Source of the DNA: Desulfurivibrionaceae bacterium
GTDB taxonomy: Bacteria; Desulfobacterota; Desulfobulbia; Desulfobulbales; UBA5123
Reading direction: 5' to 3'
Length of the DNA stretch: 64,000 nucleotides
NCBI GenBank assembly: GCA_030145325.1
Contig: JAQYVW010000005.1
Coordinates: forward strand, 24,749-88,748
Positions within the stretch are counted from its first letter, which is position 1, and each line of letters opens with the position of its first letter. The notes beneath the pieces are model-generated. The model saw only the letters and a program-made list of their open reading frames with translations, was not told the origin of the DNA and searched no databases. Position numbers and translations under genes: made by a program. Of this stretch, positions 2,277-13,610 are shown piece after piece.

Positions 2277-3134
2277 TTATTCTTCCAGCCGTGCCAATGC
2301 TTTTTTTGCGTGTGAAAATCCCTGGCTTGCCGCCTTGCGGTACAGCGTGAGGGCCTTCTCTAGATCTTCTTTAACGCCATGGCCGTTCTCGTAGAGTGTG
2401 CCGAGGCTGTATTGGGCACCGGCAGAGCCGTGTTCGGCGGCAGTGGTGTACCATTTTAAGGCTTTTTCCATGTCGTAGGTTATGCCGCTGCCGTTTTCGT
2501 GCATGGAGCCTAGATTAACTTGGGCGGCGAGATGTCCTTGCTCAGCGGCATTACGATACCACTTGATGGCCTCGCGTTCATCTTCATTGACCCCCAATCC
2601 CTTTTTGTACATAATACCAAGGTTAAATTGGCCGCGGGGGTCACCTTTTTCCGCAGCAAGGCGAAACTGTTTTACCGCCTTGTTGTAATCCTGTGCAACG
2701 TCAAGTCCGTTTTTGTACAGCAGGCCGAGATTGACGTAGGCTGGGGCAAAATCTTGTTTGGTGGCCATTTCGTACCATTGGATGGCCGTGGCGATATCTT
2801 TCTCAACCCCACATCCTTCCTCGTACATTCGTCCAAGGTTGTACTGGCCCATGGCATCGTTTTGTTGCGCTGCCATTTTGTACCATTGGATGGCCTCGTT
2901 GCAGTCCCGGTCTACGCCGCGTCCGTTTTTGTACATGGCTCCGAGATTTACCTGCCCGCCGGCATTATTCTGCTCGGCGGCCAAGCTATACCATCTGAGG
3001 GCTTCTGCTAGATCGGAAGTAACCCCTAACCCTTTTTCATACATAACTCCAAGCTTGAACTGGGCTTGTGGATCCCCGTCTTGCGCGGCTTTATTGTATG
3101 CTGCAAAGGTTTGTTGGTAATCCTTTCGGGACAT
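2277..3134 (-). CDS. Sel1-like repeat (SLR/TPR-family) protein
   Basis: About 7 tandem ~36-aa repeats of the form G.GV..D...A..WY..AA.QG.A.AQ..LG.MY..G. Confidence 0.85.
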   Translation of the reverse strand: MSRKDYQQTFAAYNKAAQDGDPQAQFKLGVMYEKGLGVTSDLAEALRWYSLAAEQNNAGGQVNLGAMYKNGRGVDRDCNEAIQWYKMAAQQNDAMGQYNLGRMYEEGCGVEKDIATAIQWYEMATKQDFAPAYVNLGLLYKNGLDVAQDYNKAVKQFRLAAEKGDPRGQFNLGIMYKKGLGVNEDEREAIKWYRNAAEQGHLAAQVNLGSMHENGSGITYDMEKALKWYTTAAEHGSAGAQYSLGTLYENGHGVKEDLEKALTLYRKAASQGFSHAKKALARLEE

Positions 3135-3248: not shown

Positions 3249-3425
3249 TTACTCCTCTTCGACAATAAAATCTTTCAATTTCTCATTTAAAGATTCAGGC
3301 CATGGCAGATCATGCAAGAAAGCGTTAGCCTCTTCCTTGGTTAAAGATTGCTTTATCTCTAGGGGGAGGCTGCGCAAAAAAGCCATTCTTTCCGAGTTAG
3401 GTTTGTTGTTTTCGTCGGTGGTCAT
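3249..3425 (-). CDS. hypothetical 58-aa protein, translationally coupled to the upstream gene
   Basis: My own translation gives MTTDENNKPNSERMAFLRSLPLEIKQSLTKEEANAFLHDLPWPESLNEKLKDFIVEEE. Its ATG overlaps the TGA of the 3422..4165 gene (ATGA). It is below the 60-aa cutoff of the ORF track. Confidence 0.4.
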   Translation of the reverse strand: MTTDENNKPNSERMAFLRSLPLEIKQSLTKEEANAFLHDLPWPESLNEKLKDFIVEEE

Positions 3426-4165
3426 TGTGGCTCCTTGTGTGATGATGGTTCTGGGCTCGTGGGCATTTGCGTAGCGTCGGTCATGGCGAGGCCGGGTTCG
3501 TTATTGTTGAGCATAGAGAGATATTTACATTCTGGATAATTGGAGCAGCCAAGGAAGTATTTGCCGATATTTTCACCTTGCTTCGCCTTAAGAAGCATCA
3601 GGGGCTCGCCACAACTGGGGCAGTCACCGTATTTGTTGGTGATTATCTTGACAGTGGGGTTTTCTGGTAATTCGATATTTTTGCTAAGAATGGCAATGAT
3701 GTCTTCAGGGTCATACTGTAACCGTGATTGCACCCTGGCGATGGGTAGACCTGCTGCGGTGGCGGCGTTGTCGATAAAATCGTCCGGCATGTCCTCAGCT
3801 TTGGCGGTTGCGGTCTTATTCTCAAGGTCAATGATTCCGGCGATGGAGAGATCCCCGGCGTTACAGAGAACAAAGGAAACCGTTGTGGCGTTAATTCTGG
3901 CCAGGGTTTTAACGGGGAGTTCTTTTCCTGGCTTCTGTTGTATCTGTATGATATCCGCCAGTCGTACCTTAACGAAGACAGTGTGCCTGTCGCCAAGAAG
4001 CGGTTCCAGGGTTTCGAGAAATGCCTTTTCCGGTGCCGAAAGAAGTGAGAAGTTTTTCTCGTAAGAAAGGGATAGGTCGTGGTTACCGGCGGTCGTTTTG
4101 ATGATGATGGCGACCAGGATGATGAAGATGATCAGGATGGAGACGAAGAGAACAGATGGAGGCAC
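3422..4165 (-). CDS. membrane-anchored DUF2726-like (nuclease-fold) protein with C-terminal topoisomerase-type C4 zinc finger
   Basis: N-terminal TM helix (VLFVSILIIFIILVAIII). Central region resembles DUF2726 (LLSAPEKAFLETLEPLL...VFVKVRLADII). C-terminal CPSCGEPL...LGCSNYPECKY zinc ribbon. Confidence 0.65.
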   Translation of the reverse strand: MPPSVLFVSILIIFIILVAIIIKTTAGNHDLSLSYEKNFSLLSAPEKAFLETLEPLLGDRHTVFVKVRLADIIQIQQKPGKELPVKTLARINATTVSFVLCNAGDLSIAGIIDLENKTATAKAEDMPDDFIDNAATAAGLPIARVQSRLQYDPEDIIAILSKNIELPENPTVKIITNKYGDCPSCGEPLMLLKAKQGENIGKYFLGCSNYPECKYLSMLNNNEPGLAMTDATQMPTSPEPSSHKEPQ

Positions 4166-4422
4166 GGTCGATAATCCTGTAAAGTAGTTATTTTACGATG
4201 AATAATGTAGTTTTATACCAGTTTTTGCCGGGAAATTGAAAGTATTTTGTTGGTCTTTCATCACTGCTTTCCCAAAACGAAGGCAGGGTGATTTTTTCTT
4301 GAGGGCAAAAGGCTCCATGATAACAACAACGTTGTTGGCTTGGAAATGATGTTGCCAAGAAGTTGGGTGCTTGCTTTTTGGGTGCCTGTGTGCTAAAAAA
4401 CGCCAGATTGTTGAAGAGTAAG

Positions 4423-4509
4423 GCCCGGATGGCGGAACTGGTAGACGCAAGGGACTTAAAATCCCTCGGTCGCATGACTGTGCGAGTTCGATTCTCGCTC
4501 CGGGCACCA
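4423..4509 (+). tRNA. tRNA-Leu (anticodon UAA)
   Basis: 87-nt cloverleaf. Acceptor GCCCGGA/TCCGGGC; anticodon stem AGGGA/TCCCT with loop CTTAAAA; long variable arm (class II). T-arm GCGAG-TTCGATT-CTCGC and encoded CCA. Near-identical layout to enterobacterial tRNA-Leu(UAA). Confidence 0.93.
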
Positions 4510-4520
4510 CGTATTATCAA

Positions 4521-4555
4521 TGGGTTAGCGAAATTTTAGCTAACCCATTTTTTTT
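4521..4555 (+). terminator. intrinsic terminator after tRNA-Leu
   Basis: 9-bp stem TGGGTTAGC/GCTAACCCA followed by T8. Confidence 0.75.
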
Positions 4556-4902
4556 GTGGTTTTGGGTAAGCACTATGTATGCATGGTTGCGAGAAAGAAA
4601 TAATCTTTTTGACTGAGCATGTTTGGGTAGGGTGATAGTCGTCTCGATACGAAGGAAGCAAGTCGAAGAGGTTGAATGGGATTTTAAAAAAAATTCTTCC
4701 AATACCTGCGGGGTGCAAATAAAACGAACCAGCAGCGAAGCGGCGAAAGAAACGGCACCCTGTGTCACTCGCCGTGTGGTCAAGCCACATTGCTGCCCGC
4801 CCGCTCTGTGGCGGATACCCTGCGTTCCTCAAAGTTGTCGGGATAAAAAAACTCGCCCGCCTATGGGCGGCCTCAAACAGTCGGAGTTTCCGCGCTGGTT
4901 TT

Positions 4903-4985
4903 GGGAGGACAGGAGACGTTGTTTAATTGTTGAAAAAAGAGTGTTTTTCATATTCAACAATTAAACAACGTCCCCTCTGTCCCTC
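4903..4985. repeat. palindromic MITE-like repeat, copy A (both arms, short loop)
   Basis: Left arm ..GAGACGTTGTTTAATTGTTGAA and right arm TTCAACAATTAAACAACGTCCCCTCTG are inverted complements around an ~18-nt loop. The right arm recurs at 11201-11225 and 13583-13607. Confidence 0.8.
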
Positions 4986-5017
4986 ACAGCTAGAAGGCTA
5001 CTTAATACATTAGGGAG

Positions 5018-5031
5018 GTATACGTAACAAA
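5018..5031. repeat. terminal inverted repeat, left
   Basis: GTATACGTAACAAA is the exact reverse complement of 6945-6958. Confidence 0.7.
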
Positions 5032-5148
5032 TCCTATTTTTTCTTTTTAAAACAACATGTTATTGTTGTGATATTATTGTATGGTTTTCTGCATTAGTCA
5101 ATATTTTTGTGTGTCGTCCTGACTAGAACTTTCACCCTACTTATCGGA

Positions 5149-6093
5149 TCAATGCCTCCTTCTTTGGCTTATAATACTTGCCGTTTTCTCCATCACTATA
5201 TCCATGGCGTTATAATAATCTCGCTGAGCCTTAACATTTGAGAGCTTGCAATAACGTTGGGTCGTTTTTATTCTGTTATGACCTAGTAGATCCTGGATTG
5301 TGACAAGATCAGCATCTGCGTTGAGCAATTTGGTTGCCATTGTATGGCGGAGTTGATGGCAGGAAACCGATACCGCACTTTGTTTAGAGTAATATTCAAC
5401 CCGTTTTTGGATACCACGGACAGAGATCGGCTTACCTTTGTAATTCCCTTTTTCAACTAGAAATACCAGTTGTTCTCTGGTGACAGGTCTTATTTGTAAA
5501 TATGCTGCCAGGGTTTCTGCAGCATCATTGCTAAGATATACCACTCTGTCCTTAGCCCCTTTCCCACTCCTTACCATTATTTGACTACGCCTGTAGTCAA
5601 TAGCTCCCAGGGTTAGATTTGCCACCTCTTCAACTCGAAGACCGCAACGCAGCATAAGCATGAACATGGCCATGTCCCGTGGTTTCGTAATGCTCCTGAG
5701 GAAAATGACAACATCACTATCACGAAGATGCCGAGGAAGTGGTTTGGGAAGACGAAGTGCCAGTTTTTTGATCACTGGGTTAGAGATCTGAAGACCCTCT
5801 TCATCTTTCAAATAATTATAAAATTTTCGGATGGCGACCAAGTGGCTATTAATAGTCTGCGGTGACAAGCTTTTTTCGAGAAGAAAATCTATATAACATT
5901 TCACATTCCTGGAAGTCACTGATTCAACAGGAACCGCAACCCACACGATGAATTTTTGTATTCTATGAAGATAATTCCTATCTGTTTGCACGGCTAAATC
6001 CACAGAGCTTTTCGAGCTGCGGCATAACTGAACTTTTTGTTTGCATAACCGTAGAAAAGATAATCCCCGTTTGTATTTCTTACCTTTAACCAT
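5149..6093 (-). CDS. tyrosine recombinase / site-specific integrase (apparently intact)
   Basis: Core-binding SAM-like region (SPQTINSHLVAIRKFYNYL). Catalytic Arg box LRCGLRVEE, HQLRHTMAT, LLGHNRIKTTQRY with the Tyr nucleophile. The start is uncertain because the ORF overlaps the upstream ORF by 100 nt. Confidence 0.85.
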   Translation of the reverse strand: MVKGKKYKRGLSFLRLCKQKVQLCRSSKSSVDLAVQTDRNYLHRIQKFIVWVAVPVESVTSRNVKCYIDFLLEKSLSPQTINSHLVAIRKFYNYLKDEEGLQISNPVIKKLALRLPKPLPRHLRDSDVVIFLRSITKPRDMAMFMLMLRCGLRVEEVANLTLGAIDYRRSQIMVRSGKGAKDRVVYLSNDAAETLAAYLQIRPVTREQLVFLVEKGNYKGKPISVRGIQKRVEYYSKQSAVSVSCHQLRHTMATKLLNADADLVTIQDLLGHNRIKTTQRYCKLSNVKAQRDYYNAMDIVMEKTASIISQRRRH

Positions 6094-6878
6094 TTCCGTA
6101 AGGCCCTCTCTGCATCTTCTGTAAAATGTACAACTCTGCCTTGGTAATTTTTCTCCCCAAGGTAAATCAGGATTTTTTGTTCCGGCAAAATAATGTCTGA
6201 AACTTTGACATTTAACAATTCGCCGATTCTCATCCCGGTTCGAAGCAATAACAGGATCATTGCCTGGTCACGGACATTGTTGACCACAACGAGTAATGCT
6301 TCAAGGTCTTCTGCAGGGATGGCCCGGGGCAGCAACTCAGGAAGTTTGAGTTGGATTTTTTTGTCGAGAATATCAGGTTCTAAAATTCTGTGGTCAACCA
6401 GGAAACGGAGAAAGGCATATATACCCTGTAGGTTTGTTTTTATTCCGCCAACCTTTAAACCACGGTTCTGATTATTTCCTATATATGCATAAATATGCTG
6501 CCGGGAGAGTTCTTCAATGCTGCTGATCCCGGACAGCATGAGAAATGATAGAAAAGAGATAATAACGCCGCCAGACTGCCTGATAGTGCTGGTTGCCAAA
6601 TTGTTTCTATATTTATGCTGTAGATAAGAAACTGCATGCTCAGCGCCAGGCAAGCTACTGTTTGATAACCTTTGGCTGAAATGGTTAAGCACCCGACGTT
6701 TTTCTGTTGGTGCCTGAGCTACAGGTAGCGCTGTGATCGGAGAAAAATATTGAGATGAAAAATTTGTTTGTGCTTGTTGATACTCGAAAAAGGTAGGGGG
6801 ATGTTGATGGGCAGACAAGAGCCCAAGATAGATTTGTTCACTTTGATGTGGAATTGCAGCTATTTTTTCCTCGGCCAT
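5994..6878 (-). CDS. tyrosine recombinase-like protein, C-terminally truncated (lacks HxxR / H / Y boxes)
   Basis: Core-binding region and Arg box (LLLRTGMRIGEL) are present. The ORF stops (..AAARKALWI*) before the HxLRH and Tyr motifs that the downstream paralogue retains. Confidence 0.6.
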   Translation of the reverse strand: MAEEKIAAIPHQSEQIYLGLLSAHQHPPTFFEYQQAQTNFSSQYFSPITALPVAQAPTEKRRVLNHFSQRLSNSSLPGAEHAVSYLQHKYRNNLATSTIRQSGGVIISFLSFLMLSGISSIEELSRQHIYAYIGNNQNRGLKVGGIKTNLQGIYAFLRFLVDHRILEPDILDKKIQLKLPELLPRAIPAEDLEALLVVVNNVRDQAMILLLLRTGMRIGELLNVKVSDIILPEQKILIYLGEKNYQGRVVHFTEDAERALRKWLKVRNTNGDYLFYGYANKKFSYAAARKALWI

Positions 6879-6944
6879 GACCTCCTCCTTTCTAAAGAAA
6901 AACAGGATGTTATGACCGAACTATACCATATAGCCGGTTTTTAT

Positions 6945-6958
6945 TTTGTTACGTATAC
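6945..6958. repeat. terminal inverted repeat, right
   Basis: TTTGTTACGTATAC is the exact reverse complement of 5018-5031. Confidence 0.7.
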
Positions 6959-7085
6959 TAGGGAGGTATGTTGACTTCTCGATCTCTCTAAGAGAGCCCG
7001 GAACATGTCAACCTCACCAGAAGAAAGAAAAGCATGAAATCATGAACGTCCCGCTCACCTTGGTGTCCGTGAAACTGGGGGTAGC

Positions 7086-10000
7086 TCAATCTGACCCCTT
7101 TGGTTCTTCGCTTGCCAAGAGGGGGCTAGTCCGCAACGCCGCAGTGTCTTCGGCCTGTTCTGGCGACGGTGCCTGCAGAGGGCGCGTAAGTCGGCGGCAG
7201 CGAAGACTCTTCCGCGTCACCTCGATCTCCTCCGCCAATTCCGATCCGCTGTAAGCCAGCGAGGTCTCGTGGCGCGCATAGCGGCTGTCGCGACTTGCGC
7301 TGAACCAGTTGAACGAGCCAGCGCAGTAAATATCATCGTCAACGAGAATTAGTTTGCTGTGCACGCGAGCGACGAAGGCTGTTTCTATTCCGTCTTTCTG
7401 CAGCGCGTCCACCGCCGCTTGCAGCCGCAGTTTTTTTTCTGCTGCAAGGGTGGAATTCGGCGCCTCGGTGTTCCACTCCTGGTCGGTGTAGATGCTGACG
7501 CTAACGCCTCGTTTTACGGCGGCGCGCATCGCCTCTAGCGCTCCAATCTCCTTTATGCACCGCAATTGGAGCCAAGGGGTGACGATCTGTATCTCATGAA
7601 CGGCCTTGGCCAACGCGGTGAGCAGGTAGCTATCGTGCTCCTGGGCATCTCGTAGCTGACGTAAGTTCTTATGTAGCGGGGTGAGATCCTTGCGCTGCTG
7701 CGGCTCGAAATTCAATGCGTTGCTCGGCTTGTGACACAAATAGGTTAAGAGAAGCCCACGCGGTTTGGACTTCGGGGAAAGCTCGAGGACGTCCATGTCG
7801 CCGAAGACGAGGAAGCTGTCCTTGGCACGAGAGACGGCAACGTTTAGCATGCTAGGACTATTATCGATAAACTCGCCGTTGGCATGCTTAGAGTAGACGG
7901 GGGAAAAGATCACTACTGGCCGCTCGGCCCCCTGTAGGGAATGGACGGTGCCCACCGTCATTCCCTCCTTGCTACCGGCGATGATGCCTCGGGCTTGGCA
8001 GGACTGCAGGATCGCCTGCACTTGGCTGCCAAAGGGCGTGACCACGCCGACGATCTGGGCTAGCGTTTTTTCGTAACGCGTCTCTAACTCCGCCTTGTGT
8101 TCGACCAGCCAAGTGGCGATGATGTCTGCCTCCAGCAGATTCTGACGACTGCCGCCGTTGCTCCATTGACATATGCCGTCCACGTGCAGGTAGCCCATCG
8201 CCGGCAGCCCTACGCCCGCAGGACGCGAGCCGCGTTTGGGAAGGAGCTTGTTGCGATAGCACAGTTTATTGCAGTAGTCGACGATCTCGTCGAAGCAGCG
8301 TCGGTGCTCGTAGAGGAACATGCCACGGGTGAGGTCGGGGTCATAGTGATAGCGGCTGACGTTTTGCGCGATGCGCATGACACTGCCGGAGGCGGCTGCC
8401 TTACCCTGTTCGGCAAGCTGCGCGTACGCCTGCTTGGGGTCGGCGCTGCAGATGATCTTCGCACTGACCATGTTACCGATATCCACCTGTGCCGGAATCG
8501 ACCATATGGGCTCGATCTGTAGCGTGTCACCGATGACAAGCGACCTCTTGGCCAAGGCGAAGGAGGCACCCGCAACCTCTGGCAGCACCTGCCCGGCCTC
8601 ATCGACGATCAGCAGATCAATGAAATCATAGAGGTAGTCGGTAACGAATTCACCGTCATCAAAGCGCTTTACCTGCATCTCTGCCGGCAGCATAAAGAAG
8701 GTTGAAACAACGCAAGGCGTGAGCTTCATGCGTCTTCGCCAGCGCTTCTCCATCGTAACACGACCGCTCTTGCGCTTCTCCTTTTCCAATTCCGGCAGCA
8801 ACGCCTCCATCTCAAGCAGCCAGCGGCCTTCCCAATAGTGGGTCGTCAGCAAAAAAATTGGGAAGCGTATGGCGGTGTCGGCCAGTACGTCGCACTCCGC
8901 CAGCGAGAGAATCTCCGCCTGTTCCGAGATGCCCAACGGCTCCAGCGCCGCTCGCCAACGCTCCAACTGCGCCTGCTCTGCCTTAAGGACCGCCTCACCG
9001 CGTTGCACGATGTGCCGCTTTTCCCTCAGCATGGTGGCGAGCTGCTCGCGTCGAACCTGTGTCGCAGCTTCTATTTCGTCAACATTGTTCCCTCCGCGCA
9101 GCGCGGATTCGGCAGGAAAGTGCTCCTTGAGGAACAGCCTAGCAAGGCGTAGCCGCTTGTTGGCAACGGGTGGCAACCATGTGAACAGCGAGTAGAGAAT
9201 AGACTCCTTTGCAAGATAGGCCTCCCATCGCTCGACCACGGCGCCGAAGGCCTGATGCTGGGTCTCGATCTCTGCCTCCTGAAGCCGGCGTTCTGTCATG
9301 GCTGTGGCCGGATCCTCGCCGATCTCACGCTGAACCGCCTCGCGCGCAAGGACAAGTTTCTGCCAGACGTCATCAAGCGCGGTCAACTTGTCCAACTCGA
9401 CGCGGATCGCTTCTCGTAACGCCTTGACAGCATCGATGAGTGTTGGGTTTGCGATTTCGGGAAAAGCGGTTGCGGCTGCCTGGAGATAGGTACGCTTGGC
9501 GCGCTCGACGTATTCCGGTGACTCGACCTGTTCGAAGAAGGCGCGGGTCTGGTACTTGGTGGCGCTCTCGACTTCCTTGCCCTTGGCCGGGAAGTAGGCG
9601 CCGAAGCTCTGGATATCCGGCAGCCAACGACCGGCAAAGCAGCCTGAACCGATAGCAAAATCCTTGCCGAATGCGTCGATGATGTTCGTCACCGCCTGGT
9701 TGTTGGTGGACGCGGCCACGATAACGGGCGGCTCACCATTCTCATCCAGCGCCGCACGCGCCCAGAGTGAGGCAACCACTGAGAGCAGCATTGTAGTCTT
9801 GCCGGTACCCGGCGGGCCGTTGACGGCAAGGACGTCCCCATGGCGCCCCTCCAGCAGGTGAGACAGGGCGTCACGTTGAGCCTGCGCCAATGGAAAAGAG
9901 TCGCCGGCGTGACCCATACGGGCTGCGAAGGCTGCACTGGCCTGTAAGCAAGTCTCGGGCGGCGCTACCTGCTCGCTGGCGTAGCGTTCGAACAACGGGA

Positions 10001-10757
10001 CGGAGGGCACACTCTTGCGCATGTGGTCATAGAGGCCGAGGATGTGCTTACTAGCGCCTTTTACCGAGGCTCTTTTCTCGAGGTACCAGTAATTAGCCAG
10101 CTCAAAGTCGCCAGCAGTGGCCGGCCAGCCTTTGCCAACGAAATCGAACAGATCCACTGCATGGGCCAGACACCGCGACCAGAGCTCCTCTTCATTTAGC
10201 CCATGGGGGGAATCTTTGCCACCGAGGGCTGGAGTTTTGGTCAGGAAGGCATCCATATCCTCAAACGCACCGATCGTGAATGCACAACGGTCCATCGGCT
10301 CGAGTATGTCGCGCGGCATTATGGTCGTGGAGGTTGGCCGCAACCGACCGTCACGACCCAGTTCGGCCATGATCAAAAGCGGCGTCACCACATCGGGTAC
10401 ACCGGTACGTCGTCTCTGGGCGTGCTCGAGCTGCTGCAGGTAAACTATAGGACGAACGACAACCTCGATGGCATGCACATGCTCAGGCTCTTCGGCAAAC
10501 AGCGCGGCGATCTCGCTAATATCGATGTGTCCGACGCGCAGCTCATCCAGTGCCCTGCGCAGAAAGACCTTGGTCTCCCCCTCCCGCAACGCGCCGCTGC
10601 CGTGTTCGCTGTCTGCCAGGGAGTTTCGCCAGTAGGCAGCGTATGCAAGAAAGGTTTCATTCATTAGTCTTCTTCTTTTCCTCATGGTTATAGGCAACCG
10701 GGCATCTTGCCGGGAAGTGCCTTCAAGGGTAGTGGAGAGTTTGGTCTGGTTTGACAA
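7086..10757 (-). CDS. SF1 (Upf1/DNA2-like) helicase fused to a C-terminal PLD/HKD nuclease; type II Mokosh (MkoC)-like architecture
   Basis: Walker A NGPPGTGKTT, Walker B LIVDEAGQV, VGTVHSLQGAERPVVIFS and NVAVSRAK helicase motifs. One C-terminal HKD motif: HSKLILVDD...GSFNW. About 300 aa at the N-terminus have no call. The TTG start in the track is doubtful; ATG candidates are at 10685 and 10664. Confidence 0.8.
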   Translation of the reverse strand: MSNQTKLSTTLEGTSRQDARLPITMRKRRRLMNETFLAYAAYWRNSLADSEHGSGALREGETKVFLRRALDELRVGHIDISEIAALFAEEPEHVHAIEVVVRPIVYLQQLEHAQRRRTGVPDVVTPLLIMAELGRDGRLRPTSTTIMPRDILEPMDRCAFTIGAFEDMDAFLTKTPALGGKDSPHGLNEEELWSRCLAHAVDLFDFVGKGWPATAGDFELANYWYLEKRASVKGASKHILGLYDHMRKSVPSVPLFERYASEQVAPPETCLQASAAFAARMGHAGDSFPLAQAQRDALSHLLEGRHGDVLAVNGPPGTGKTTMLLSVVASLWARAALDENGEPPVIVAASTNNQAVTNIIDAFGKDFAIGSGCFAGRWLPDIQSFGAYFPAKGKEVESATKYQTRAFFEQVESPEYVERAKRTYLQAAATAFPEIANPTLIDAVKALREAIRVELDKLTALDDVWQKLVLAREAVQREIGEDPATAMTERRLQEAEIETQHQAFGAVVERWEAYLAKESILYSLFTWLPPVANKRLRLARLFLKEHFPAESALRGGNNVDEIEAATQVRREQLATMLREKRHIVQRGEAVLKAEQAQLERWRAALEPLGISEQAEILSLAECDVLADTAIRFPIFLLTTHYWEGRWLLEMEALLPELEKEKRKSGRVTMEKRWRRRMKLTPCVVSTFFMLPAEMQVKRFDDGEFVTDYLYDFIDLLIVDEAGQVLPEVAGASFALAKRSLVIGDTLQIEPIWSIPAQVDIGNMVSAKIICSADPKQAYAQLAEQGKAAASGSVMRIAQNVSRYHYDPDLTRGMFLYEHRRCFDEIVDYCNKLCYRNKLLPKRGSRPAGVGLPAMGYLHVDGICQWSNGGSRQNLLEADIIATWLVEHKAELETRYEKTLAQIVGVVTPFGSQVQAILQSCQARGIIAGSKEGMTVGTVHSLQGAERPVVIFSPVYSKHANGEFIDNSPSMLNVAVSRAKDSFLVFGDMDVLELSPKSKPRGLLLTYLCHKPSNALNFEPQQRKDLTPLHKNLRQLRDAQEHDSYLLTALAKAVHEIQIVTPWLQLRCIKEIGALEAMRAAVKRGVSVSIYTDQEWNTEAPNSTLAAEKKLRLQAAVDALQKDGIETAFVARVHSKLILVDDDIYCAGSFNWFSASRDSRYARHETSLAYSGSELAEEIEVTRKSLRCRRLTRPLQAPSPEQAEDTAALRTSPLLASEEPKGSD

Positions 10758-11166
10758 ATGGGTATCTATTTAACTCAAACAACCATCACATCACGCAATC
10801 TTTAGTAAAAAAAGGGATCAAGTCCGCTTTGGGCTTTTGTTTCGCTCCCAGGTCAACATATTTCCAAAAGAACTTAACTCGCAGATGGTGTCCTGGCAAT
10901 GGAATAGATTCAGGGGGCGGCGTGGTCTCAAGGCCATATCTTGGTAGCCTGTTATTTCATCCGGCAATCGCTTTCTGGCACACTGGGTTAATGTGCGCCG
11001 ACTTAATTTAACTGTCAAGTTCGTGGGGAGGGCAGGCCGGATTGTTGCATTTGTGGTCGTTAATTCCTGCGGGAGAGGGGCTGGTCATTATTCTTGATAC
11101 GCTCTTTTTTTGTTATGGGTGAATCTGTCTGTTATCGTCCTTTTCTGAAATGTTTTGGTTTGTGCT

Positions 11167-11228
11167 GTTCTTTTTTATATATCAACAAGATAGTCAATTA
11201 ACAATTAAACAACGTCCCCTCTGCCCCC
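11167..11228. repeat. MITE-like repeat, copy B (right half only)
   Basis: TTTTTTATATATCAACAAGATAGTCAATT..CAATTAAACAACGTCCCCTCTGCCCCC is nearly identical to 13547-13610. The left arm GGGGACGTTGTTTAATTG is absent. Confidence 0.8.
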
Positions 11229-11431
11229 TAGGGAGTACGCCTGATTTTCTATGCTTGTCAGGGCCATAATATAGATCTGTCCCGGTTTTGTATTGCGATT
11301 CTCTGGAACCACTCCCTTTTTAGCTCTACCCTAACGGTCAGATTGTGCTTGACTTTGGCGCTTTGTTTTTTGGATAGTTTTGAAAGGACTCTTTTTTATT
11401 TCAATCATCCCAACCAAACAAAGGAGACAGA

Positions 11432-13504: not shown

Positions 13505-13610
13505 ACGTGAGGGTTAGGGGACGTTGTTTAATTGTTTAAAGAAGAGTGTTTTTTTTATATATCAACAAGATAGTCAATTCAGCAATTAAACAACGTCCCC
13601 TCTGCCCCCC
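13505..13610. repeat. palindromic MITE-like repeat, copy C (full length)
   Basis: Left arm GGGGACGTTGTTTAATTG (13517-13534) and right arm CAATTAAACAACGTCCCC (13583-13600) are perfect inverted complements. The loop matches copy B. Confidence 0.8.

Follow-up and report, generated by a model that had tools for sequence, protein, structure and literature searches.

Prokaryotic insertion sequences catalogued so far use, to our knowledge, DDE, DEDD, HUH or serine enzymes. CTnDOT, a 65-kb conjugative transposon with a 7-bp crossover region, is moved by one arm-binding integrase with accessory factors, and its coupling sequences change at every move. The first strand exchange by this integrase, IntDOT (CTnDOT/NBU1), needs about 2 bp of identity by the cleavage site; elsewhere the spacer need not match (PMC2034462). 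Recombinase-in-trio (RIT) elements carry three tandem tyrosine recombinase genes, ritA/ritB/ritC, without cargo between inverted repeats in about 3.5 kb (PMC3414803). SE/GInt elements have four core genes (intA, tfp, intB and srap, including tfp/ginC, for a non-catalytic recombinase-like protein, and srap/ginD) and span 7 to 16 kb with cargo (PMC10214605). Here we analyze a 64,000-nucleotide (nt) stretch of the genome of a Desulfurivibrionaceae bacterium (contig JAQYVW010000005.1), hereafter the window, in which positions 5011 to 6958 hold two tyrosine recombinase genes, A and B, between short terminal inverted repeats (TIRs). We put the probability at roughly 80% that this is a defective copy of a cargo-free element of insertion sequence size, whose intact members integrate by one-sided or ordered strand exchange with a 7-mer inherited at their B end.

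The TIRs of the window copy are perfect over 14 bp, with GTATACGTAACAAA at 5018-5031 and its exact reverse complement at 6945-6958. These are the sole two matches to GTATACGTAACAAA in the 64-kb window when two mismatches are permitted, and two matches were obtained in none of 100 shuffles. Directly outside both TIRs stands TAGGGAG (5011-5017 and 6959-6965); with the TIR positions fixed, the chance of such a 7/7 match is about 6e-5. The 11-bp version of this direct repeat, TAGGGAGGTAT, is also genuine, because the target arm begins with GTAT, the same bases as the TIR tip. Between the TIRs lie two open reading frames (ORFs) only, both on the minus strand and both matching PF00589. The GC content of the interior is 0.38 to 0.46, against 0.49 in the left flank and 0.57 to 0.61 in the right. 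An earlier note on this DNA had described the perfect 14-bp repeats around only two recombinase genes, the TAGGGAG outside both ends with its 11-bp version counting GTAT, and an interior more AT-rich than either flank; repeat searches, ORF searches and GC values bore out each of these. The features of the copy, in window coordinates, are listed below.

4999..5010, no strand: B-side target arm TACTTAATACAT, a weak TIR mimic; arms across the family have the TIR's T4, A9, T10 and W11
5011..5017, plus strand: TAGGGAG (CTCCCTA in gene orientation) by the recombinase-B end; by the family pattern, the element-borne 7-mer
5018..5031, plus strand: TIR at the recombinase-B-distal end, GTATACGTAACAAA, from repeat search and family conservation
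5073..5101, minus strand: outward promoter-like site, TTGACT, 17 nt, AATAAT (10/12), downstream of gene B and reading through the TIR
5149..5991 (ORF 5149-6093), minus strand: recombinase B, 280 aa from GTG at 5991, with PF00589 and SAM-like N-terminal domains
5994..6010, no strand: deletion junction, 281 bp, near 6002/6003, from alignment columns 1011-1291
5994..6878, minus strand: recombinase A, cut to 294 aa, with partial PF00589
6945..6958, plus strand: TIR at the recombinase-A-proximal end, TTTGTTACGTATAC, from repeat search and family conservation
6959..6965, plus strand: TAGGGAG by the recombinase-A end; by the family pattern, the target's own 7-mer
6966..6977, plus strand: A-side target arm GTATGTTGACTT, which is AAGTCAACATAC in gene orientation; the arm AAGTCAACATAY recurs in relatives

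The window copy belongs to an unnamed two-recombinase family, in which intact members measure 2.0 to 2.5 kb and carry, on one strand, a gene A of about 390 aa overlapping a gene B of about 290 aa. Two intact relatives were read whole, L002 (a 2,224-bp element on a 2,722-bp contig) and L003 (a 2,305-bp element), and both follow the plan of TIR, gene A, overlapping gene B, TIR. The window copy agrees with L002, L003 and L061 in gene order and strand, its A/B overlap region being deleted. The family TIR, xTATACGTAACAAA, is matched by the window copy at 14/14 positions and is kept in 50+ relatives. Across the 51 insertions described below, its core TATACGTAACAAA is constant, with variation confined to the tip base and a few more positions.

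To compare the 7-mers across the family, we oriented all loci with gene A on the plus strand and took the 51 distinct insertions having both ends and flanks. The two 7-mers match perfectly (7/7) in 28 of the 51 and differ by 1 to 4 mismatches in 17. Counted over these 17 imperfect pairs, the mismatches at positions 1 to 7 number 12, 13, 7, 4, 2, 2 and 0, and identity is therefore kept at the edge of the 7-mer that adjoins the A-end TIR. As a control, the next 7 nt outward gave no pair with two or fewer mismatches, and agreement there was never above 4/7. The 7-mers are non-random, several of them recurring with unrelated flanks: CACCTAC five times, and also GTAGGTG, CTGCTAT, TCAGGAA and AGACTGT.

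The strongest evidence on the origin of each 7-mer comes from five copies in one Desulfobulbus metagenome-assembled genome (MAG) whose 2,280 bp are 100% identical, a mark of recent transposition. Their B end is always AGACTGT, while their A ends read CTCCAGT, CTCCTGT, CGCTTGT, CTCCAGT and CTTAAGT, with only the final GT common to all. The B-end 7-mer is constant in every lineage that can be compared over several insertions (the five Desulfobulbus copies; L014/L074/L077; L064/L065; L119/L114/L146; L093/L113/L120/L131/L123; and the window copy with L002). CTCCCTA or CTCCATA stands at the B end of L002 and L061, which are of the window copy's lineage, and the window copy itself has CTCCCTA at both ends. 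As AGACTGT stays at the B end of identical copies whose A ends vary, the B-end 7-mer is carried along by the element, and the one at the A end is the target's. Only the 2 to 3 bases adjoining the A-end TIR need to match the target. A collapsed-repeat contig of Desulfogranum marinum DSM 2058 (2,212 bp, coverage 247) runs 7 nt beyond the B end and 4 nt beyond the A end, which fits a constant B end and a variable A end. The direct duplication seen in the earlier note therefore needs rewording: the 7-mer is present at both ends and is kept in homologues, but it is not an ordinary target duplication, the B-end copy being inherited and the A-end copy the target's.

For two other members of the family, unoccupied sites are available in related genomes. 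At the site that is occupied in L016, the uninterrupted L060 (in G171) has only TTCCTGA, the A-end 7-mer, and at the site that is occupied in L014, the uninterrupted L059 (in G376) has only CTACTGT, again the A-end 7-mer. Separately, L054 (G042:C167, about 1890-2000), at the locus of L016's intact copy, holds about 100 bp of the B-end terminus only (ACAGTCT followed by ATATACGTAATAGATCC...). This is a decayed remnant, and it shows the age of some insertions.

The sequence around the 7-mers is also patterned. The 12 nt on either side form a weak palindrome, approximately AAnTnAAgATwn per side when read towards the 7-mer, which has T4, A9, T10 and W11 in common with the TIR. The arms are sharper when compared within lineages: AAGTCAACATAY adjoins the 7-mer in the window, L002, L006/L028, L015, L150 and L152, and is found on the opposite side in L003.

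Other palindromes were met in the course of this comparison. In L056 (G073:C48, about 1370-1500), the site at which L014 carries its element holds the TIR end TTTGTTACGTATA and, after it, a small palindromic unit whose arms, ACAGAATAGGTTTTATCAAC ... GTTGATAAAACCTATTCTGT, are 20 nt long; this suggests that small palindromic repeats attract the elements or accumulate together with them. Stand-alone palindromes of the form TTTGTTACGTATAG, 7 nt, CTATACGTAAC occur in three Desulfobacterota-type MAGs (L155:6438-6466, L156:100-128 and L159:5309-5337). These TIR-N7-TIR-like sites have the arrangement predicted for a circle junction and no A or B gene nearby, and a P4-type integrase gene is 0.5 kb away from one of them. 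Such palindromes may be relics, may serve a different system or may be landing sites that the elements prefer.

Both recombinases are Xer-like and are 30% identical to each other. In the window copy, recombinase B aligns with positions 21-168 of the 172-position PF00589 model (2.7e-33) with all catalytic motifs kept, and is 84 to 92% identical to relatives of 266 to 300 aa; it is without its own ribosome-binding site and about its first 20 codons. Window A covers only positions 3-113 of 172 in PF00589, and its relatives are 383 to 399 aa long. Its N-terminal and core-binding domains remain, as do the first Arg and Lys, but the His-x-x-Arg, His and Tyr are gone. Among 20 full-length A proteins, R217, K243, H309, R312, H335 and Y344 are invariant; window A ends near residue 292, before H309, and its own catalytic set is incomplete. 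The set of the tyrosine recombinase superfamily (Arg-Lys-His-Arg-His/Trp-Tyr) is present in full in B and in the full-length A relatives.

The defects of both genes trace to one event. Aligned with L002 and L003, the window copy has a single 281-bp gap (columns 1011-1291), and A is truncated and the start of B missing because of this internal deletion relative to intact relatives. P0125, a 299-aa A protein, was considered as a sharer of the deletion and rejected, as it comes from a full-length element with a premature stop. Judged from its sequence, the window copy can probably no longer move by itself, because A has no catalytic centre left and B no translation start. With its ends intact, it might be moved in trans by a full-length copy.

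Neither protein reaches the curated NCBIfam equivalog cut-offs for XerC, XerD or XerA. Recombinase A scores 155 bits against a XerA cut-off of 220 and 142 against a XerC cut-off of 335; for B, the scores are 197 bits against the XerC cut-off of 335 and 191 against the XerA cut-off of 220. The curated protein libraries hold no specific model for A or B. As for expression, the TTGAC of the promoter-like site at 5073-5101 is kept in L002 and L003, and the region has fewer such sites than its own shuffles, so that a match of this kind is weak evidence by itself. One speculation from the sequence is that this site, running from 5101 to 5073, would read into gene A only in a circular form.

These observations can be combined into a model of transposition. 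In intact members, the 14-bp TIRs would be the recombinase-binding arms, and excision would yield a circle whose joined ends form a lox/dif-like site consisting of TIR, 7-nt spacer and TIR. The circle would then recombine with a chromosomal pseudo-site, a 7-mer flanked by two weak TIR-like arms. The exchange of strands would start at the edge of the 7-mer abutting the A-end TIR, would need about 2 to 3 matching bases there, and would be one-sided or ordered. The second exchange may be independent of homology, as with IntDOT (PMC2034462), or absent, with replication completing the process, as proposed for SE (PMC10214605). Following integration, the A end would keep the target's 7-mer and the B end the element's own, which would be re-used at the next hop. 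The window copy would have entered a site whose 7-mer matched perfectly, and later lost 281 bp. In this model we infer the circular intermediate, the first-cutting enzyme and the strand bias. One-sided exchange or biased repair is favoured because a plain two-exchange heteroduplex would place the element's 7-mer at either end equally, and it is at the B end in every informative case.

Several points weigh against this model and against our reading of the window copy. The strand bias could also stem from biased repair of a heteroduplex. Insertions of the same lineage are not fully independent, so the counts by position overstate the sample size. The L060 empty site matches only 13 nt past the junction, and that of L059 has 2 extra bases and 88% identity. 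The circle junction TIR-N7-TIR was absent from metagenome contigs, and a looser junction pattern gave 5 matches in genome contigs, none with recombinase genes alongside. Searches of the window genome (3.36 Mb, 168 contigs) with the element DNA, the TIR at 1 mismatch and protein B found no second copy, other matches being ordinary distant recombinases; further copies are possible, stand-alone 2.2-kb repeat contigs being easily lost from bins. No empty site of the window insertion was found in relatives by searching for joined flanks, the tRNA-Leu alone being common to them, and the predicted 24-mer that would span the site when empty has no exact match in genome contigs or metagenome contigs. 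The further copies and empty sites by which the earlier note would have judged the element were thus not found for the window copy itself, but the termini and 7-mer are conserved, and other members are multicopy with empty sites.

The genomic setting of the window copy is relevant to the alternatives. The element lies 0.5 kb downstream of a tRNA-Leu(TAA), in DNA that relatives are without, and Rfam over 4300-7300 yielded the tRNA only. Directly adjoining it, in this strain-specific DNA, is a gene at 7086-10757 on the minus strand for a 1,223-aa helicase and PLD-nuclease protein, which matches MkoC of the type II Mokosh anti-phage defence (PADLOC) over its full length with 1,363 bits. A search of 400 genomes of the order gave no DNA relative of the mkoC segment. 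The motif GTCAACATAY occurs twice in the window (0.13 expected), at 6962-6975 and 10852-10865, inverted around mkoC. At 10850-10882, AGGTCAACATAT TTCCAAA AGAACTTAACTC resembles an unoccupied target-type site of the element family. As a bolder extension from this single instance, paired pseudo-sites (GTCAACATAY at 6966 and 10852) could bound gene modules moved in trans by these recombinases, like pdif modules.

Further repeats surround the locus. Between tRNA-Leu and the element, at about 4716-4896, is a dispersed repeat of about 180 bp with no Rfam match; other contigs of this genome have at least 10 further copies (80 to 97% identical), and genus relatives have some as well. A hairpin repeat with 24-nt arms, GGGGACGTTGTTTAATTGTT ... 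AACAATTAAACAACGTCCCCTCTG, is present at 4911-4983, 13516-13608 and 11170-11227, as two full copies and one right half, and the half copy is followed immediately by TAGGGAG (11229-11235). The hairpin repeats may be boundaries of island segments. Two neighbouring genes have no evident link to the element: one at 3422-4165 on the minus strand, just upstream of tRNA-Leu, for a DUF2726 protein with a topoisomerase-type zinc ribbon, and one at 2277-3134 for a Sel1-repeat protein.

We weighed four other explanations for these data. The one we take most seriously, while considering it improbable, is a conventional integrative element, whose recombinases, like those of lambda or Cre, would require identity over the whole 7-bp overlap and exchange both pairs of strands, the imperfect repeats reflecting later point mutations. 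The perfect 7/7 pairs, the window copy's included, speak for it, but the mismatches of the remaining pairs are strongly polar, and mutation cannot produce the pattern in which identical 2,280-bp copies have four A-end 7-mers and one B-end 7-mer. A cut-and-paste transposon, whose 7-bp repeat would be a true duplication from staggered target cuts, has in its favour that TIRs and direct repeats together resemble the anatomy of a DDE insertion sequence. We consider it very unlikely, given two tyrosine recombinases with no DDE, HUH or serine enzyme, and 7-mers that reappear at unrelated sites within a lineage, often with polar imperfections.

Two explanations remain. The pair might, as a module, serve to integrate a larger genomic island at tRNA-Leu, with the Mokosh gene as part of it, and the proximity of tRNA-Leu(TAA), the strain-specificity of everything downstream of a tRNA that relatives have alone, the adjoining mkoC and the inverted GTCAACATAY pair around it are all in keeping with this. 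Yet the TIRs enclose two genes only, the same cargo-free unit of 2.0 to 2.5 kb is found in unrelated contexts in 50+ relatives, and the order-wide search gave no relative of the mkoC segment; we judge an island module to have a small chance, below that of conventional integration. A fim-type invertible switch, in which the recombinases would invert the DNA between the repeats and so activate or silence a gene next door, is in our view as unlikely as staggered cutting. Inverted repeats do flank the recombinase genes, a promoter-like site points outward (5101-5073), and both proteins weakly match models of tyrosine-type DNA invertases. These matches, however, reach 42 to 50 bits against a cut-off of 221, the unit is multicopy at unrelated loci, and the 7-mers are directly oriented, so recombination of attL with attR would give excision rather than inversion.

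We also compared the family with the described systems. Like RIT elements, it has cargo-free tandem tyrosine recombinase genes between inverted repeats; unlike them, it has two genes and 14-bp TIRs, the RIT terminal repeats being longer and different. Three consecutive recombinase genes were found neither in the window copy nor in any relative examined. The earlier note was right to see a compact mobile element with tyrosine recombinases instead of a DDE transposase, but its likening to the RIT type does not hold. BIM elements (one tyrosine recombinase with an SMC-domain protein; PMC3414803) were ruled out, as both genes are recombinases.

The resemblance to SE/GInt elements (PMC10214605) is closer. 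These also have two catalytic tyrosine recombinases, short inverted repeats (13 to 19 bp, imperfect) and a short spacer in the joined form, show target preference and are without a conjugation module; as in the present family, the target's central bases end up by the intA-proximal end and the element's spacer by the other end. The descriptions nevertheless set the two apart. The family has two genes in 2.2 kb, no cargo, a 7-nt spacer in place of the 6-bp spacer of SE, and hosts that are mostly Desulfobacterota and Nitrospirota, and 2.0 to 2.5 kb offers neither ORFs nor room for the other core genes. The SE spacer is taken from the previous site, whereas the B-end 7-mer here is constant over many hops.

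With IntDOT the family would have ordered exchange in common, which agrees with the polar mismatches and with the GT common to the five Desulfobulbus copies; in place of the single integrase and accessory factors of CTnDOT, it has a pair of simple Xer-like enzymes and symmetric 14-bp arms. Tn554 is similar in its two adjacent tyrosine recombinases, strong site preference and short core sequence accompanying the element. It differs in its third gene, tnpC (beside tnpA and a large tnpB), one very large recombinase, resistance cargo, terminal repeats that are imperfect only, and its occurrence in Firmicutes. The long Tn554-related recombinases are 600 to 800 aa (PMC3414803), and the present family has neither a recombinase of 600 to 800 aa nor a third gene. 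XerC/XerD-dif and Cre-loxP offer a paralogous Xer-like pair and a site with inverted arms of about 11 to 14 bp and a 6- to 8-nt spacer, as predicted here; in contrast to XerC/XerD-dif, the genes are borne on mobile DNA, the sites are the element's own ends and the scores are far below the equivalog cut-offs. Taken together, the element functions most like the SE/GInt and Tn554 group and the CTnDOT integrase, while failing the gene sets of SE/GInt, Tn554, RIT and BIM; nor is it a chromosomal Xer system.

The family is found in sediment bacteria, where it is abundant and widespread though patchily distributed. Each protein has thousands of homologues, mostly on contigs of 2 to 3 kb, the look of a repeated element in short-read assemblies. 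In the window's order, 22 of 201 sampled genomes (16 of 67 genera) have an A homologue at E <= 1e-40, and at the same threshold none was found in 3 other genomes of the window's genus, nor were any plasmid-borne relatives found at 1e-40. A profile search of species-representative genomes gave at least 562 loci, mostly from Desulfobacterota and otherwise from bins labelled Nitrospirota, Chlorobiaceae, Bacteroidales and Dehalococcoidales. Four carriers are strains in culture, Desulfobulbales among them: Desulfoprunum benzoelyticum DSM 28570, D. marinum DSM 2058, Desulforhopalus singaporensis DSM 12130 and Desulfosediminicola flagellatus IMCC35005. Long-read assemblies contain multiple copies, with six in one Desulfobulbus MAG and about 12 in one Nitrospiraceae MAG.

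By these properties the family fits the operational description of an insertion sequence (less than 2.5 kb, mobility genes only, TIRs, identical multicopy), the window copy being single and defective. The literature searched, limited to an accessible library, held no published description of a two-recombinase element of this kind. It is possible, at what we would call somewhat less than even odds, that the family constitutes an undescribed class of prokaryotic insertion sequence, characterized by a heteromeric Xer-like pair, one-sided exchange, a fixed 7-nt address at the B end and 2 to 3 matching bases in a dif-like pseudo-site.

The interest of this finding lies in the family, the window copy being a dead or dependent derivative that marks a strain-specific defence locus beside tRNA-Leu. 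For annotation, such gene pairs are now labelled XerC or XerD, and they split assemblies into 2- to 3-kb contigs. If our reading is true, an abundant, cargo-free element of insertion sequence size with only two tyrosine recombinases would add a class to those catalogued. It would provide a minimal system, with two proteins and 14-bp arms, for how tyrosine recombinases transpose rather than integrate at one site. The heritable 7-mer together with 2 to 3 matching bases would make a simple targeting rule, intermediate between those of CTnDOT and SE, which could be tested at the bench, as cultured hosts exist.

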